Counted from the stretch's first letter, positions 31,288-36,643 are shown. The stretch: 64,000 bases of DNA from Sedimentisphaerales bacterium (GCA_963708075.1 OY970194.1:1248001-1312000); one strand, 5' to 3'. Program-made: numbers and translations. The notes: generated by a model not told the origin, from the letters alone.

Positions 31288-32208
31288 CTAGAAAGGTTCC
31301 TCTGAGATTTCTTTATGACGTGACTGCAACTGACGAATCTTCCCGTCTACTGCATTCACTAAGTCCTTGGCTGCTCCAATCACGGTCTCGACATCCCCCC
31401 GTGACAGAAACCTTTCTTTGCCGTCGGTTGTCTTCCCATTTCGATGCACGATGTCATGACGAATCCTGACCGCTTCATACAAGGCCCCAAGCTTATCAGG
31501 CCAATCCACCCCAAGCACAGTCTTGTAGAGTTGATGCGCCCTAGCCAGGTTGTGCCAGCTTATCTGAAGAAGGTATTCTCGCACGACTTTTTCAGGTGTT
31601 ACGTCTCCACGAACAAGATCCGTAAGTTCGACCTTTCTTGCCTTCAAATTCGGGTCCGTGACTGCTAATTTACACAGGAGAGTTCTATCGGCAAGGACCG
31701 TGACGATAAAAGCATCTGAGAGATATGCTTCCAGTGCTATTATTACACTCGCATAGAGGAGTCGGAGGAAGTATCCCTCCGATGCCGAAGGCGGATTGAT
31801 ATCGAGGAGTTGTTCGATTGTATCGAGGCTGTGCCCAAAGGCCTGGTAGAACTGGCTGGTTCTTATCGCTTCGGCCAGATAGTCATCCGACTGATCTTGG
31901 TCTGGGATTCCAGACCATTCGTAGCACGAATATTCATTGACAAGCTCCTGAGCGCACTCATCAATGACATCGTCATCTACGATGCCGCTGAATTCGTTAG
32001 ACAGTTCTTCTTGAGCGTCGTAAGGACCGCCCCAGATATACTGGAAGCCTCCCTCGCGCGATTCGTATGGGCATACATTCGTCGGATCGTCATAGTGGGT
32101 TAAGAACCAAGCCTTCATAATCTTCTTCTGTTCCTCCGGCTCTGCCTCAGCGAGGTGGTCTGGGTCGAATCTCGGGGCGTCATCTTCGAAAAAGGACATC
32201 TGTGACAT
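31288..32208 (-). CDS. HEPN-motif protein with acidic N-terminal domain (putative RNase/defence protein)
   Basis: C-terminal helical domain with LEAYLSD and RHDIVHRNG (Rx4H); N-terminal DP...CPYESREGGFQYIWGGPYDA; low GC; GAGGAAG RBS. Confidence 0.75.
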   Translation of the reverse strand: MSQMSFFEDDAPRFDPDHLAEAEPEEQKKIMKAWFLTHYDDPTNVCPYESREGGFQYIWGGPYDAQEELSNEFSGIVDDDVIDECAQELVNEYSCYEWSGIPDQDQSDDYLAEAIRTSQFYQAFGHSLDTIEQLLDINPPSASEGYFLRLLYASVIIALEAYLSDAFIVTVLADRTLLCKLAVTDPNLKARKVELTDLVRGDVTPEKVVREYLLQISWHNLARAHQLYKTVLGVDWPDKLGALYEAVRIRHDIVHRNGKTTDGKERFLSRGDVETVIGAAKDLVNAVDGKIRQLQSRHKEISEEPF

Positions 32209-32295
32209 ATCTTCCTCTTTCAGTTCTCTGGATATGAGATCAGTTTATAGCCGGCACCCCGGCATAGTCATGTAGCGGGCAGGTCCTCATTGTGC

Positions 32296-33062
32296 TCATG
32301 CGGCGACCTCATCCATGAAGTGTCTAATGCCTTTGAGCATTTGCTCCACATCCGTACGACTGAACTGGTCAAACTGACCGTGTGCTGCGTTGTTACGTAT
32401 GTCTGCCAGTACAGTTGCTTGGCCTTCAACTGGTTGTAGACGCCAGCTTTCTTGAGGTCATCAATCATCACATTCATCTTCTTGTTCTCGCCATTTTCCT
32501 TCACGGTTGGTATGGACGGGTTTTGTCCCTTGCACAAGTCTCTCAGTATCTTTTCAAGTACCGCCCCGGCGAGCACGGCTCCGGGCACGTGGTCAAATTC
32601 GCCCTGTTGCCCTTCAGACAAGAGGCGTTCGGCCTGTCCCATATAGTCTGCCGCAAATTCTCTCTCAATTTGGCCGATCAAATCACCAAGGAAGCCATTT
32701 TCATAATCTGCTCTAAGGCCCTTTAGAGTGCCTATCCCCCAATCGAAGTGCCCAGGACAAATGCGAATATTCCGAAAGCCCTCAACATCATTCCTATGGG
32801 CACTTTCCGCGGGGAGGATCTGATCTAAGAGCGATGCACAGGAGGTGCGCCAAGCCATAAAGGGTTGGGGAGCAAGTTCGTAATGGTCTGGTAGTCTCTG
32901 CCGGGGACCAAGTCCGCCAAATGAGTCGTATTGGGTGTGGATAAAACTCTCACGATAACCACCCGGAACGGTGCGCATCTGTTGATAAAGGGTCTCTCCC
33001 TGTGCTATGAGTTCGTCGAATCGAGCTAAGTGTTTTTTTCTCAACTCAAGTGGAAGCAGCAT
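32296..33062 (-). pseudogene. HEPN/DUF4145-like protein, frameshifted near 32407
   Basis: AVLAGAVLEKIL...LKKAGVYNQLKAKQL, then a shifted frame reads ADIRNNAAHGQFDQFSRTDVEQMLKGIRHFMDEVAA* (Rx4H motif), with stop at 32296-32298. Confidence 0.75.
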
Positions 33063-33443
33063 TTTATGGTCCTCACCAGCCTTCAACGAGCAGCTCTTGA
33101 ACTGACGCCATTATACCCTCTAGTCGTGTACGCTAATCACAGGATTTGAGTGAATTGTCGGCTCTGCGCTGCAAGTGGCTGTAATCTAAAGAAAGGGGAC
33201 GGTGTCAGGTGTCTATTCGGAAGACCACTGGGCTGTAATTCCGGGGACATCCATGAGCAAGCCGTTGTCAGGCGTGCCCTGGGCTTGTCGAAGGGACGGT
33301 CGCGGGATTCTTTCGCGGGAGTCCCACACATCTATTCGGTGTCGCCCGACTAAAGACTCGGGGACGTGAGTCTCCGGGCCGCAGAGAGTTGCCAATGTTG
33401 TCGGGGCGTGGTCGGAAAGCGGTGGCGGCCTGCATGGCTCTTT

Positions 33444-33545
33444 GTAGGGTGAGCGTCCGCGCTCGCCCATTCTGAGGATTCACCACGGACCAGATGAGGT
33501 GCAAGGGCCACAGGCAACGGGGACGAGCGGGGACGCTCGTCCTAC
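33444..33545. repeat. REP-like inverted doublet (GTAG-tagged)
   Basis: GTAGGGTGAGCGTCCGCGCTCGCCC (33444-33468) and inverted GGGACGAGCGGGGACGCTCGTCCTAC (33520-33545). Confidence 0.75.
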
Positions 33546-33885
33546 GCGGAGATCGGAATCCGCCACCGAAGGCCGGCCGCAGCCTTTTGTCACTACTTGA
33601 CAAAAGTCATGGAACATTTTGCCTGCATGGAACGTCTTTAATACATGGTGAGATGACCATGTCTCATTGGGCGCAGCGACGCCCGGGCCGGCCCGGCGGC
33701 CACGGTCAATCGTATATCACGAATCGTTAATCGTAGATGTCCTGAGGGAACGTGAAATCCCAGCCGGCCGGCGGCATAGGTTCGATGCCCACTGCTGTCA
33801 AGCAAGGCCAGTCGCCGATATCCCGGAAAGTCTATAGGCAAGCTTCGCTTGACGATGCCGCCCCGTGGGGGGCAGCTATTGCGCC

Positions 33886-34460
33886 AAACAAAGCCAATTG
33901 GAGCAGCCTGGGTCCGTTTGTAGTGTGCCCGTAAGGGCATCAAGGGAAGAAACGCCTTACGGCGTCACTACGAACGAGGATGTGAAACAAAGCCAATTCG
34001 TGATGGAGGAAGGTGGGCCCTTGGGATTGCGGATTGCGGTTGAAGGACGGAAGACTGTCTCGTCGGGCTACGCAATGACAGCACAGGCGAATATGCGAAA
34101 CAAAGCCAAATTCGGGAGATATGGGGTATCTGGGGAAGAATCGGTATCGTGTCTGGCACGGGGCGGAATGTGCGAAACAAAGCCAATATGGCCTTGCCGA
34201 GCGGGCTACAGGCGGTGTGCAAAACAAAGCCAATTTGGGGCCGGGGGCCCTTGGATTGCGGATTTCGGAATGCGGATTGAAGACGAGGACCGCGGTTGCA
34301 GTGATGCCCTCGTGCGGCGTGCGGAACAAAGCCAATCCGGGGGAAGGAGTATCGAGTCTGAAGTGTGAAGTGTCAAATAGCACCCCCGCCCGCAGGGGTG
34401 ATCCCAGCCGAGGGCGGCTGGGCCACATGGTGGCTGACTCGACGTGCCGAACAAAGCCAA
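33886..34460. repeat. Array of 7 irregularly spaced direct repeats, invariant core AACAAAGCCAA
   Basis: 12-mers (A/G)AACAAAGCCAA start at 33886, 33985, 34098, 34175, 34222, 34324 and 34449, all on the same strand, with periods of 47-125 bp. Confidence 0.9.
33916..33975. repeat. REP-like inverted doublet inside the repeat array
   Basis: GTTTGTAGTG-TGCCCGTAAGGGCA and inverted ACGCCTTACGGCGT-CACTACGAAC. Confidence 0.7.
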
Positions 34461-34519
34461 TTTCCCAGGCCGGTTCGTGCGCGAGCCGGGTATACCCGAT
34501 GAGCGGCGGGGGATGGCGT

Positions 34520-35446
34520 CTATTGCAGGTAGTTCAGGATGCCGGCGGCTATGGCTTGGGCCAGGCGGGTTTGAAAGGTGTTGTCCTGGAGGCGGCGGGC
34601 GTCCAGGGGGTTGGAGAGGTAGCCCGTTTCGATGAGGATGGCGGGACAGCTTGTCAGCACGAGGACTTTGTAGTCGGCTTCGCGGATGCCGCGGGTGTCT
34701 GAACCCGTGCCGGCCATCTTCGCGCTGACGGCCCGGGCCGCCTCGTAGGCATCGCGCGACGCGTCCCTGGCCACATACAGAGTGAAGCCGCTGATGCTGC
34801 GGTCGGGGACCGAATCGGCGTGGATGCTCACGAACAGATCGGTGTCACGGCGGTTGGCGATCTCCGCCCGTTCTTCCAGTTCGATGAAGCGGTCGTCCTG
34901 CCGGGTCATGACCACGTTGATGCCCTGTTGCGCCAGCAACGCCGCGACCTTTGTGGCCACCTGCAGAGTGATGTGCTTCTCATAGCGCCCGGCGACCATG
35001 GAGCCAGGGTCTTTTCCGCCGTGACCCGCGTCAACGACGACAATGGCAGTGCCGGGCTTGGGGCGAGGGCGTGCCGCCACAGGCGGCTGCTCCGGTCCAG
35101 GGATGCGCAGGTACGGCTGGATCGTCGCGACGAGCGTCTCGGGAACGTAAACGGTAGTGCCGACCCTGCGAGTCTCGCCGACGGGGCCGATGGCCTTGCC
35201 GTTCACGAAGAACCGTCCATCCGCTTGTATGAAGATCAGCACGGTATTGGCGGCGTTCTTGAGGACAACGAACGTCTCGGCCCGCTCCTGGATACGAAGT
35301 CTCAGCCGGGCGGCCAGCTCATCGATGGTGACGGTCTGCTCCTTGACGGTCACGCTGACCGCAGGCCGCTGCTGCGGCTGCTGGCAGCCACCGACCGCCA
35401 GGACCACACCCGTAAGAATGGTGAGCAGTCTGGTTCTTGAACTCAT
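34520..35446 (-). CDS. N-acetylmuramoyl-L-alanine amidase (Amidase_3), lipoprotein
   Basis: Lipobox VGGC; VVDAGHGGKDPG, EK, TR.DD..I.L..R...AN, FVSIHAD, ILIETGYLSN. Confidence 0.92.
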   Translation of the reverse strand: MSSRTRLLTILTGVVLAVGGCQQPQQRPAVSVTVKEQTVTIDELAARLRLRIQERAETFVVLKNAANTVLIFIQADGRFFVNGKAIGPVGETRRVGTTVYVPETLVATIQPYLRIPGPEQPPVAARPRPKPGTAIVVVDAGHGGKDPGSMVAGRYEKHITLQVATKVAALLAQQGINVVMTRQDDRFIELEERAEIANRRDTDLFVSIHADSVPDRSISGFTLYVARDASRDAYEAARAVSAKMAGTGSDTRGIREADYKVLVLTSCPAILIETGYLSNPLDARRLQDNTFQTRLAQAIAAGILNYLQ

Positions 35447-35504
35447 AATAGAGTTTTTATCGGATATTGGGCCGTGAAATGTTTAGACTTTCTGGCGACA
35501 ATTC

Positions 35505-35927
35505 TCACGCGCAGGCCGGGCACAGGCCTTCCAGCCGGACTTGTTGACGGCTGATGACGAAGCCTTTGTCGGCAACCCTGGCCATGGGCAGCGAGATATC
35601 CGTGAGGCAGTGGGTGACGCCGCAGCTCGTGCATGTAAAATGCGGGTGGCACTGGTGTTCCGTGCAGTGGTCGGCCAGCTCGAAATACCACGCCCGCTTA
35701 TACGTGAACGCGCGGTGGACCAGTCCCGCCTCGACCAGCGATTCCAGCGTGCGGTAGACAGTGACCTTATTGAAGGTTTTCTCCATTGATGGAGGAGCGA
35801 TCTGATCCTGCCGAAGGGGCCTGGCTGTTTCCATGAGGGCCCGCAGAATGGCGATCCTCGCTTCCGTGCAATACAGCTTTGCGTGTTTCAGCATCTCCCG
35901 GGCCTTATTGTCAAGTCGTGTGATCAT
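35505..35927 (-). CDS. Fur family transcriptional regulator
   Basis: T.AR..IL, TVYRTL..L...GLV, HPHFTCTSCG, C-terminal GLCPAC. Confidence 0.92.
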   Translation of the reverse strand: MITRLDNKAREMLKHAKLYCTEARIAILRALMETARPLRQDQIAPPSMEKTFNKVTVYRTLESLVEAGLVHRAFTYKRAWYFELADHCTEHQCHPHFTCTSCGVTHCLTDISLPMARVADKGFVISRQQVRLEGLCPACA

Positions 35928-36643
35928 GCCGGGATCTCCACAGAGTGCTCATGGTCGAGGTGCAGGTGAGGCGAGCGAACGAAGAACATGGGAAAGATGA
36001 TATCGCTGAAGCAGCAAGGCAGCCAGACCGCGATGAACAGGACGACGAAAGCTCCGAGCAACAGCACGGGCGACAATTCCCGATGCGTGTTCATGAGGAT
36101 ATGGAAGGAGGACGCCCACGTGCTGACGAGGATATGGCCGGCATGGGGGAGCTTCGTTCGAGGCCGGCACCACGCAATGAGCACGCCCAGAATCGCCGCC
36201 GGGTTGACCAGGTACCACTCCTCGATAAATCCCAGATGTATCTCGGGTCTGCCGGATTCGGCTTCGTGACCGTGACCCGCCTCCTGGTCATCCGCATGGC
36301 TGTGCACCTTCGCCTCAGTCGGCACAGACACTCCGAGCAGGCTCTCTCCGAAGTATGGCAGAACGGAATCGCTGAGCGTGGCGGTCCCGACAGCCCCGAT
36401 GTAACCGACGAGCAGGACAACAAAAAAGCCTTTTCCCTTTTCGTACAGCCTGTACAGCGACGCGGTCACGGTCGCCGCCAGAATCACGTGGAGGGGATGA
36501 AAGACCCTGAACAGCCCGTGGGATACCTCCGTCGGGGCCTTGGCAAACAAAAGCATGGCCAGGATTCCCGTAGCGGCCCCGAAAAGCGTAAACGGGGCGT
36601 GCTCCCTGAGTTCTGTCACGATCCCATGTGCTCTCGTATGCAT
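35924..36643 (-). CDS. His-rich polytopic membrane protein (putative metal permease)
   Basis: About 6 TM helices with HAPFT, FHPLH, PHAGH, SSFH and PCCFSD; His-rich loop HSHADDQEAGHGHE; ATGA overlap with the Fur-family gene. Confidence 0.7.
   Translation of the reverse strand: MHTRAHGIVTELREHAPFTLFGAATGILAMLLFAKAPTEVSHGLFRVFHPLHVILAATVTASLYRLYEKGKGFFVVLLVGYIGAVGTATLSDSVLPYFGESLLGVSVPTEAKVHSHADDQEAGHGHEAESGRPEIHLGFIEEWYLVNPAAILGVLIAWCRPRTKLPHAGHILVSTWASSFHILMNTHRELSPVLLLGAFVVLFIAVWLPCCFSDIIFPMFFVRSPHLHLDHEHSVEIPA

Follow-up and report, generated by a model that had tools for sequence, protein, structure and literature searches.

In a stretch of 64,000 nucleotides from a Sedimentisphaerales bacterium (GCA_963708075.1, OY970194.1:1248001-1312000; hereafter the window), a short sequence recurs seven times on one strand at uneven distances, in a region flanked by an Amidase_3 gene, an ORF without a family and a FUR gene. 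The question raised by this locus is what such repeats are and at which level they act, that is, whether they are the remains of a coding repeat, sites on DNA or sites on RNA. The seven repeats belong to a genetic unit that occurs many times in the genome, and they form its array. In its intact form this unit consists, in order, of a promoter-like element, a leader of AAATCRN heptads, a gene for an all-helical protein of about 190 amino acids and a same-strand array of the motif tGcGAAACAAAGCCAATt, and in one subfamily it is closed by a conserved tail; the units between the motifs are reshuffled among arrays.

The Array in the Window

The 11-mer AACAAAGCCAA occurs exactly and on the + strand at 33887, 33986, 34099, 34176, 34223, 34325 and 34450 of the window, so that the seven same-strand copies of an invariant 11-mer which the earlier note had placed at 33886-34460 are all exact and all in their places. 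The periods of 99, 113, 77, 47, 102 and 125 came out with the same values when re-measured, and the G-Y-G upstream of the copies and the T after six of the seven are present as described. When one mismatch is allowed, the window holds nine matches (the seven exact ones and two elsewhere with one mismatch) against a chance expectation of 0.58, and nine was reached in none of 100 shuffles. The three forward frames through the window array contain 5/4/4 stops and none of them is open, which bears out the view that no single frame runs through it. Other repeat modules had been reported in the spacers, and the inverted repeat and both heptamer runs were found there. The features of the window copy, including the 5' part discussed below, are as follows.

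33610..33637, + strand: promoter-like element TGGAAC-N17-CGTCT, with AACATT and CGTCT invariant against six gene 5' regions
33644..33661, + strand: small leader hairpin CATGGT-GAGATG-ACCATG, with the ATGGT...GACCA segment conserved in gene copies
33708..33742, + strand: five AATCGTA-like heptads of the 5' leader, aligning with the AAATCRN heptads directly 5' of the Shine-Dalgarno site of gene copies
33743..33835, + strand: Shine-Dalgarno-like TGAGGGA, GTG start at 33752 and about 25 decayed codons of the 5' end of the ANRRNAAKSTGP gene
33836..33884, + strand: pre-array segment (GGCAAGCTTCGCTTGACGATGCC...), a copy of the commonest short repeat of the genome, aligning with what precedes motif copy 1 in gene-linked arrays
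33885..33898, + strand: motif copy 1 (CAAACAAAGCCAAT)
33899..33983, + strand: spacer of unit 1, hairpin module ...ACGCCTTACGGCGTCACTAC, arms 33915-33936 / 33955-33976
33984..33997, + strand: motif copy 2
33998..34096, + strand: spacer of unit 2, GGATTGC heptad run at 34015-34055
34097..34110, + strand: motif copy 3, next base A
34111..34173, + strand: spacer of unit 3, GGGAGATATGGGGTATCTGGGG module
34174..34187, + strand: motif copy 4
34188..34220, + strand: spacer of unit 4, short (33 nt)
34221..34234, + strand: motif copy 5
34235..34322, + strand: spacer of unit 5, heptad run at 34244-34284
34323..34336, + strand: motif copy 6
34337..34447, + strand: spacer of unit 6, GAAGTGT repeats and CCCAGCCGAGGGCGGCTGGG module
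34448..34461, + strand: motif copy 7, the last

Arrays Across the Genome

The source genome (G000) is a single contig of 7.52 Mb with 60.4% G+C. It carries 265 exact copies of the 11-mer (101 on the + and 164 on the - strand). Apart from 11 of them, these copies are grouped in 41 clusters, each with 2-13 members and confined to one strand; the word "orphan" used for the window array is therefore withdrawn. The consensus over all genome copies is the tGcGAAACAAAGCCAATt given above, with an information content of 2 bits at the 11 core positions that falls below 0.6 bits once 6 nt on the upstream side or 3 nt on the downstream side are reached, and the conserved core spans 14-18 nt. A search with the 14-mer at up to two mismatches gave 323 matches, compared with 21 in a reversed-sequence control, and 291 of the 323 sit in 42 arrays, each of a single orientation. 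These approximately 42 sites are spread round the chromosome, and the orientation of the 42 arrays along it follows no pattern. Successive units are spaced at 32 to 375 nt, the values 87, 34, 63, 77 and 81 recurring, the spacers are 18-361 nt long and the shortest units measure about 34 nt. Moreover, array formation is peculiar to this motif: among the commonest 373 families of 12-mers, only the ten that overlap the motif form arrays, a family being counted as array-forming when half or more of its copies have a neighbour 25-300 nt away on the same strand.

The Linked Protein Gene

Comparison of flanks revealed that about ten arrays share approximately 900 nt upstream and 146 nt downstream, and the upstream stretch they have in common is an ORF read on the strand of the motif. 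By tblastn, nine copies of an N-terminal domain of about 190 amino acids were found, with the N-terminus M..EAQV.ANRRNAAKSTGPRT.QGKA, and all nine are followed by an array on the same strand 39-535 nt downstream. The idea of an array that goes with no gene is thus overturned, every copy of one gene family being followed by one. One gene copy is frameshifted, and its array (A29/A30, G000 4779032-4780340) is split by about 1.3 kb with an opposite-strand ORF of 396 amino acids that has the look of an insertion sequence.

The protein is small and basic, and its AlphaFold model (pLDDT 82.6) is all-helical. It matched no family in Pfam, NCBIfam or PHROGs and nothing in PADLOC at E up to 1, and only "hypothetical" clusters in the ESM Atlas. 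A sequence-profile search of the PDB gave nothing below E 0.28, Foldseek against the PDB gave no match at E up to 0.001, and the best hits of a wide VIA-align search (Z 9.1) were generic helical hairpins. As many as 1479 database proteins, 215-437 amino acids long, match the domain at E up to 0.001; among the matches listed, all those that bear a name are called hypothetical, and the longer homologs contain no informative domain fusion.

A common tail, in variants of ...RPRPRVAYHCHDIARSY (DNA alignment of six tails), closes seven of the eight intact copies and also carries ...RVAYHCHDIARSY; this tail is absent after motif copy 7 of the window. A tRNA reading of its T-arm-like look was rejected because it matches no tRNA gene in the genome, and a tRNA scan of five loci found none. 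Rfam gave no match at E up to 1 in window positions 32000-36000, and in four gene-linked loci only sub-threshold, chance-looking matches overlap array or tail. One gene-linked unit is preceded, on the minus strand at L013:1166-1221 (G000 about 940268-940323), by a match to the nhaA-I riboswitch that exceeds the gathering score (49.2 bits, E 2.3e-7).

The position of the arrays directly downstream of a gene for a small basic helical protein brings to mind plasmid partition or replication repeat arrays, in which case the repeats would be double-stranded DNA binding sites for the protein of the unit itself. The direct repeats with their conserved core of 14-18 nt and the 42 or so sites round the chromosome are compatible with this. 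However, spacing is irregular (32-375 nt) and lacks helical phasing, no DNA-binding fold or family was recognised in the protein, no partition ATPase or replication gene lies nearby and the arrays are oriented without pattern along the chromosome, so we regard such a role as highly improbable.

The Window Copy as a Gene-less Derivative

Window positions 33585-33830 align with the 5' regions of six gene copies, and the parts shared are the T(G)nAACATT...CGTCT element, the small hairpin, the AAATCRN heptads, the Shine-Dalgarno-like site, the start codon and decayed first codons, the start belonging to an ORF at 33752-33934. A profile of nine gene 5' regions matches window 33600-33747 with E=1.8e-12 (nhmmer) and precedes 20 of the 42 arrays, nine of them gene-linked and 11 solo. 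For the window array too, the idea that it has no link to a gene has to be given up, since the promoter-like region, leader and first codons of the gene are still present. The profile, which extends about 75 nt into the CDS, ends 520-700 nt before the first motif in intact copies and 138 nt before it in the window, so that the domain-coding part, a stretch of about 550-650 nt, is missing there. With the protein domain lost and no frame open through the array, the window array reads as a gene-less derivative, one of about 33 in the genome, and the window copy itself may be inert. An ortholog of the amidase was found in 15 relatives, none with an array within 1.5 kb, but its protein identity is low (44-62%) and synteny does not extend to the downstream gene; neither gain nor loss at this locus can therefore be dated.

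The AAC ... CGTC shape of the promoter-like element, with its N17 spacing, presumably resembles that of ECF-sigma promoters. A strict regular expression for the element gave 10 matches, 8 of them at these units, versus 6 in the reversed control, and it pointed to no sigma-factor gene. A sigma-70 scan detected no + strand promoter and no terminator. On the minus strand, a sigma-70-like site (TTGACA, 17 nt, GATACT; 10/12) lies at 34376-34348; it points away from the amidase gene and is formed by the reverse complement of the GAAGTGT module in unit 6.

Two further repeats were observed. A palindromic repeat of about 183 bp (33403-33586, arms 33444-33468 / 33521-33545) lies just 5' of the unit; with some 40-55 related genome copies in both orientations it is MITE-like, and at the right end it is similar to the final 30 nt of the gene-linked unit tail. 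AAATCRN heptad runs directly 5' of Shine-Dalgarno sites gave 269 signature matches outside arrays, far outnumbering the arrays; many are paired back to back between divergent positions, and they may be a feature of leaders or promoters in this lineage generally.

Reading Frame and Nucleotide Constraint

The frame of the gene continues through seven longer gene-linked arrays without a stop, whereas the other frames contain 1-9. Stops in the three forward frames of these arrays are as follows.

A06: 5/0/4
A11: 0/6/5
A12: 3/0/3
A14: 7/0/4
A15: 8/0/6
A21: 4/0/1
A36: 9/0/2

Because a frame is kept stop-free, translation matters in the gene-linked copies, and an RNA site alone leaves this frame unexplained. 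In addition, homologs in other genomes have the same gene-through-array layout. Annotators should beware that the "hypothetical proteins" of this family (215-437 amino acids) owe their variable tails to read-through into the array.

The peptide, on the other hand, is not what is conserved. Within single ORFs the motif is read as KQSQ or as TKP(I/M), never as NKAN, and, with the 87-nt duplicates excluded, the spacings modulo 3 are distributed 78/65/78. When twelve 87-nt units were compared in pairs, the first, second and third codon positions accounted for 268/410/379 differences, with 105 synonymous versus 529 non-synonymous codon differences in the 87-nt array units, in contrast to the protein domain, which has a third-position excess (e.g., 9/7/19) and about as many synonymous as non-synonymous differences. 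In solo units, stops are spread evenly over the motif-relative frames (87/89/87), and the exact 11-mer is retained in 213 of 241 solo copies (88%) and in 41 of 50 gene-linked ones (82%). Coding by solo arrays was considered for A31, A32, A37 and A41, which are fully open, and dropped because chance fits at 1.6% stops per codon. The two frames within ORFs, the even solo stops, the solo retention and the unconstrained peptide all uphold the proposal that the motif is selected as nucleotides, independently of frame. The motif is held constant as nucleotide sequence and not as peptide; where the gene is present, the frame is open and the peptide drifts freely, while the motif nucleotides are fixed everywhere. 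This combination points to a function of the motif in RNA or DNA.

These data bear on another explanation, according to which the array encodes a repetitive, disordered C-terminal part of the protein, the solo arrays are pseudogene remains and the motif is kept constant by homogenisation of repeats. The stop-free frame of the gene-linked arrays and their shared ending in ...RPRPRVAYHCHDIARSY would be expected from it, as would the same layout in homologs elsewhere, the full-length matches in the same genus, which are mostly open frames of 243-530 amino acids for a query of 187, and, in the window, the stops in all frames next to a decayed gene start. However, the motif stands in two frames within one ORF, the array-encoded peptide is without amino-acid constraint, and solo arrays retain the exact motif at 88% versus 82% although their gene remnants have decayed. 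Furthermore, lineages that share only about 45-55% identity in the protein domain have the same motif nucleotides, as do those where the array follows the stop codon, and homogenisation would affect spacers too, yet the spacers are diverse. We therefore consider this explanation very unlikely. The earlier note had set its own reading against that of a decayed coding repeat gene whose intact homologs keep one frame: intact copies do keep a frame open, but the motif falls in two frames within one ORF and the peptide is unconstrained, so that this idea survives only in its first half. Likewise, of what marks a coding tandem-repeat protein, the open frame was found in the seven gene-linked arrays, and a single frame with constraint on the amino acids was not.

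Spacers and the Reshuffling of Units

Apart from many singletons, the spacers fall into a few families. The GGATTGC heptad module occurs in 32 units of 19 arrays, and the GAAGTGT module and the 87-nt module are represented by 16 units each; there are also hairpin modules, among them ones ending in ...CTAC (GTAG on the other strand). Spacer modules are also common outside arrays, for example 304 times outside versus 48 inside, and within arrays they are co-oriented with the motif (48:0, 9:0, 9:0, 13:0 and 14:2). The most frequent 12-mers in the genome (about 270 copies) come from the short repeat GGGTGGCAGCG(G/T)CAAGCG.AGCTTGCCGATGG, which makes up the pre-array segment and the 87-nt units and has 92 copies outside arrays.

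A relative was found for 138 of 249 spacers, and the closest one lies in another array for 112 of the 138, whereas only one of 50 adjacent unit pairs is collinear with its relatives, although best-hit analysis in large module families can understate collinearity. Consequently, the arrays are mosaics of re-assorted units and not copies of whole arrays. The window array is an example, its units having their best relatives in three different arrays: unit 1 in the first unit of A11 (82% over 72 nt), unit 5 in A03 and unit 6 in unit 4 of A20 (90% over 96 nt). For unit 6, the blastn match (86% over 146 nt) includes both flanking motifs, and for the spacer of unit 3 no relative above threshold was found.

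Such mosaics are the basis of the main rival explanation, in which the motif acts on DNA as a junction where units are gained, lost or exchanged and the arrays are cassette-like, either by site-specific or microhomology-driven recombination or by targeted insertion of short dispersed repeats. The scattered closest relatives and the near absence of collinearity argue for it, as do the abundance of the modules outside arrays combined with their motif orientation inside, the range of unit lengths (32-375 nt) down to minimal units of 34 nt and the 10-11-nt duplications of the motif in low-GC relatives. Nevertheless, the surroundings of the units contain no conserved recombinase, integrase or transposase, the protein of the unit is unlike any known recombinase in sequence and fold searches, and the motif is non-palindromic and without an inverted partner; besides, the same motif accompanies different modules in different lineages, which suggests a sequence-specific function beyond recombination. 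On balance we think a DNA junction somewhat unlikely. A more elaborate form of it, in which the motif would be the exchange site of a cassette system, the gene-less arrays a silent reservoir and the helical protein the agent that performs or guides exchange, appears quite unlikely to us. If it were true, exchange would re-assort the tails of a protein family, or gene-less RNAs, among some forty arrays, and programmed mosaic-making of this kind is not known to have been described in bacteria.

Secondary structure was also considered. The window array folds no better than its shuffles (z +0.65 on the + and -1.38 on the - strand), and neither do 223 of the 249 spacers (those of 30-140 nt), with a mean z of -0.13, so the idea of an array of hairpins was abandoned. 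A stem of GCCAAT with upstream ATTG(T)GC was rejected as well, the needed bases being present in only about half of the units. The predicted probability of being unpaired is 0.64 for the motif versus 0.35 elsewhere, and this high predicted accessibility comes largely from base composition.

Occurrence in Other Genomes

Within the genus, the exact 14-mer is abundant in 9 of 23 genomes (305, 122, 117, 75, 32, 15, 12, 11 and 10 copies) and occurs in 0-2 copies in the other 14. The gene is present in 21 of the 23, with 1-21 matches each, and thus also in motif-poor members, where the extensions of the ORF read CETNPI or RQTNPI, that is, a variant AACAAACCCAAT. Of 301 genomes sampled evenly across the phylum, the source genome among them, 56 contain the 13-mer and two have more than six copies of it, namely the source genome (232) and one other (22).

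Species-representative genomes contain at least 567 related gene loci, and all 80 that were kept are from Planctomycetota MAGs. Among the 74 MAG loci with at least 300 nt downstream, a forward motif lies within 1.5 kb downstream in 49 and two or more copies in 38, and a reverse motif in none. Co-orientation of gene and array can be inherited, however, and alone does not separate an RNA from a DNA function. Within 2.5 kb of 91 loci, no neighbour gene is conserved besides the ANRRNA gene.

In lineages of low G+C (41-47%) the stop codon of the gene comes shortly behind the domain, and the array, separated by a gap, lies outside the gene; these arrays have units of about 90 nt with 10-11-nt mini-repeats or duplications of the motif. 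One frame is often stop-free throughout them. Their units of about 90 nt (L057, L097, L116 and others) have a conserved module AAATGAACGTAAAC ... AAAGGATTATGAA, corresponding to the G000 module GACGCTAACC ... GGAAAGGGGTTAT, and the stem bases of the two appear to co-vary (TAACC/GGTTA versus TAA(A)C/GATTA).

A Proposed Recognition Site on the Transcript

The reading that we prefer, and to which we would give an even chance, is that the unit is transcribed from the conserved promoter-like element and that the motif works at the level of the transcript, where it would be an accessible recognition site present in several copies. It is based on the promoter-like leader and start, which are kept in solo arrays, and on the motif, which is kept both inside and outside ORFs. 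Transcription would start from the conserved promoter-like element, and the transcript would present 2-13 times a C/A-rich, G-poor and mostly unpaired site, which might be recognised by a protein, possibly the basic helical protein of the unit, or by a ribonuclease. Gene-less copies would then give an RNA bearing only motif sites, and the repetition of an identical motif would make arrays prone to gain, loss and exchange of units. If this holds, Planctomycetota carry a widespread and self-contained unit, made of an unknown protein gene and an array of an invariant motif, and in a few genomes the gene-less derivatives of this unit have multiplied until the motif copies number in the hundreds.

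Comparison with Known Repeat Systems

CRISPR arrays have repeats of constant length (about 23-55 nt), near-uniform and mostly unique spacers and cas genes nearby. The exclusion of CRISPR by the earlier note is confirmed, as the core here is 14-18 nt, the spacers are 18-361 nt long and 138 of 249 are related to other units; cas genes are absent from the flanks of the window array, and none is conserved within 2.5 kb of the 91 loci. REP/BIME units are imperfect palindromes, often in alternating orientation. Their clusters are likewise intergenic mosaics of several short repeat families, some spacers here contain palindromic modules and the hairpin spacers ending in ...CTAC presumably resemble GTAG-REP; but the motif is non-palindromic, all 42 arrays are of single orientation and tied to one gene family, and no link of the arrays to a REP-associated transposase was seen. 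Integrons are recognised by an intI integrase gene adjoining the array and by attC sites, in which inverted core sites are paired. A conserved short junction and units of variable length shuffled between arrays are common to integron cassette arrays and those described here, which, however, have no attC-type imperfect palindrome, no inverted core sites on either side of the units and no integrase nearby, and whose units are too short for genes.

In type III toxin-antitoxin systems, tandem repeats of identical length stand upstream of a gene for a ToxN/AbiQ-type endoribonuclease. As in ToxIN, a small protein gene here lies beside short direct repeats with an A-rich conserved site, but the array is downstream, its units vary in length and sequence, and the protein is all-helical and without a PADLOC match. 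Plasmid centromere and iteron arrays differ in that spacing here is irregular (32-375 nt) and no partition or replication genes are conserved nearby. Rickettsia palindromic elements are short repeats inserted in frame into genes; the resemblance is that short dispersed repeats lie inside an ORF without breaking its frame, whereas here only the tail of one family is concerned, the linker is invariant, gene-less arrays exist and there is no sequence kinship. Sponge RNAs such as CsrB/RsmZ and CrcZ are similar in that many predicted single-stranded motif copies would lie in one putative transcript; the motif, however, belongs to neither of the types found there (GGA and AANAANAA), the loci number about 42 instead of one to three, and some arrays lie inside an ORF. 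The unit fails the defining tests of CRISPR, REP/BIME, integrons, type III toxin-antitoxin systems and centromere/iteron arrays, and it matches none of the repeat systems compared, being only loosely like sponge RNAs and in-frame palindromic elements. Full-text searches of the literature gave no description of the AACAAAGCCAA motif, of the protein motif (KSTGPRT etc.) or of such arrays in Planctomycetes.

Upstream of the window copy, an ORF of 306 amino acids on the minus strand (31288-32208) weakly matched two HEPN-type domains, with scores below the cutoff (E 3e-4 and 8e-4).
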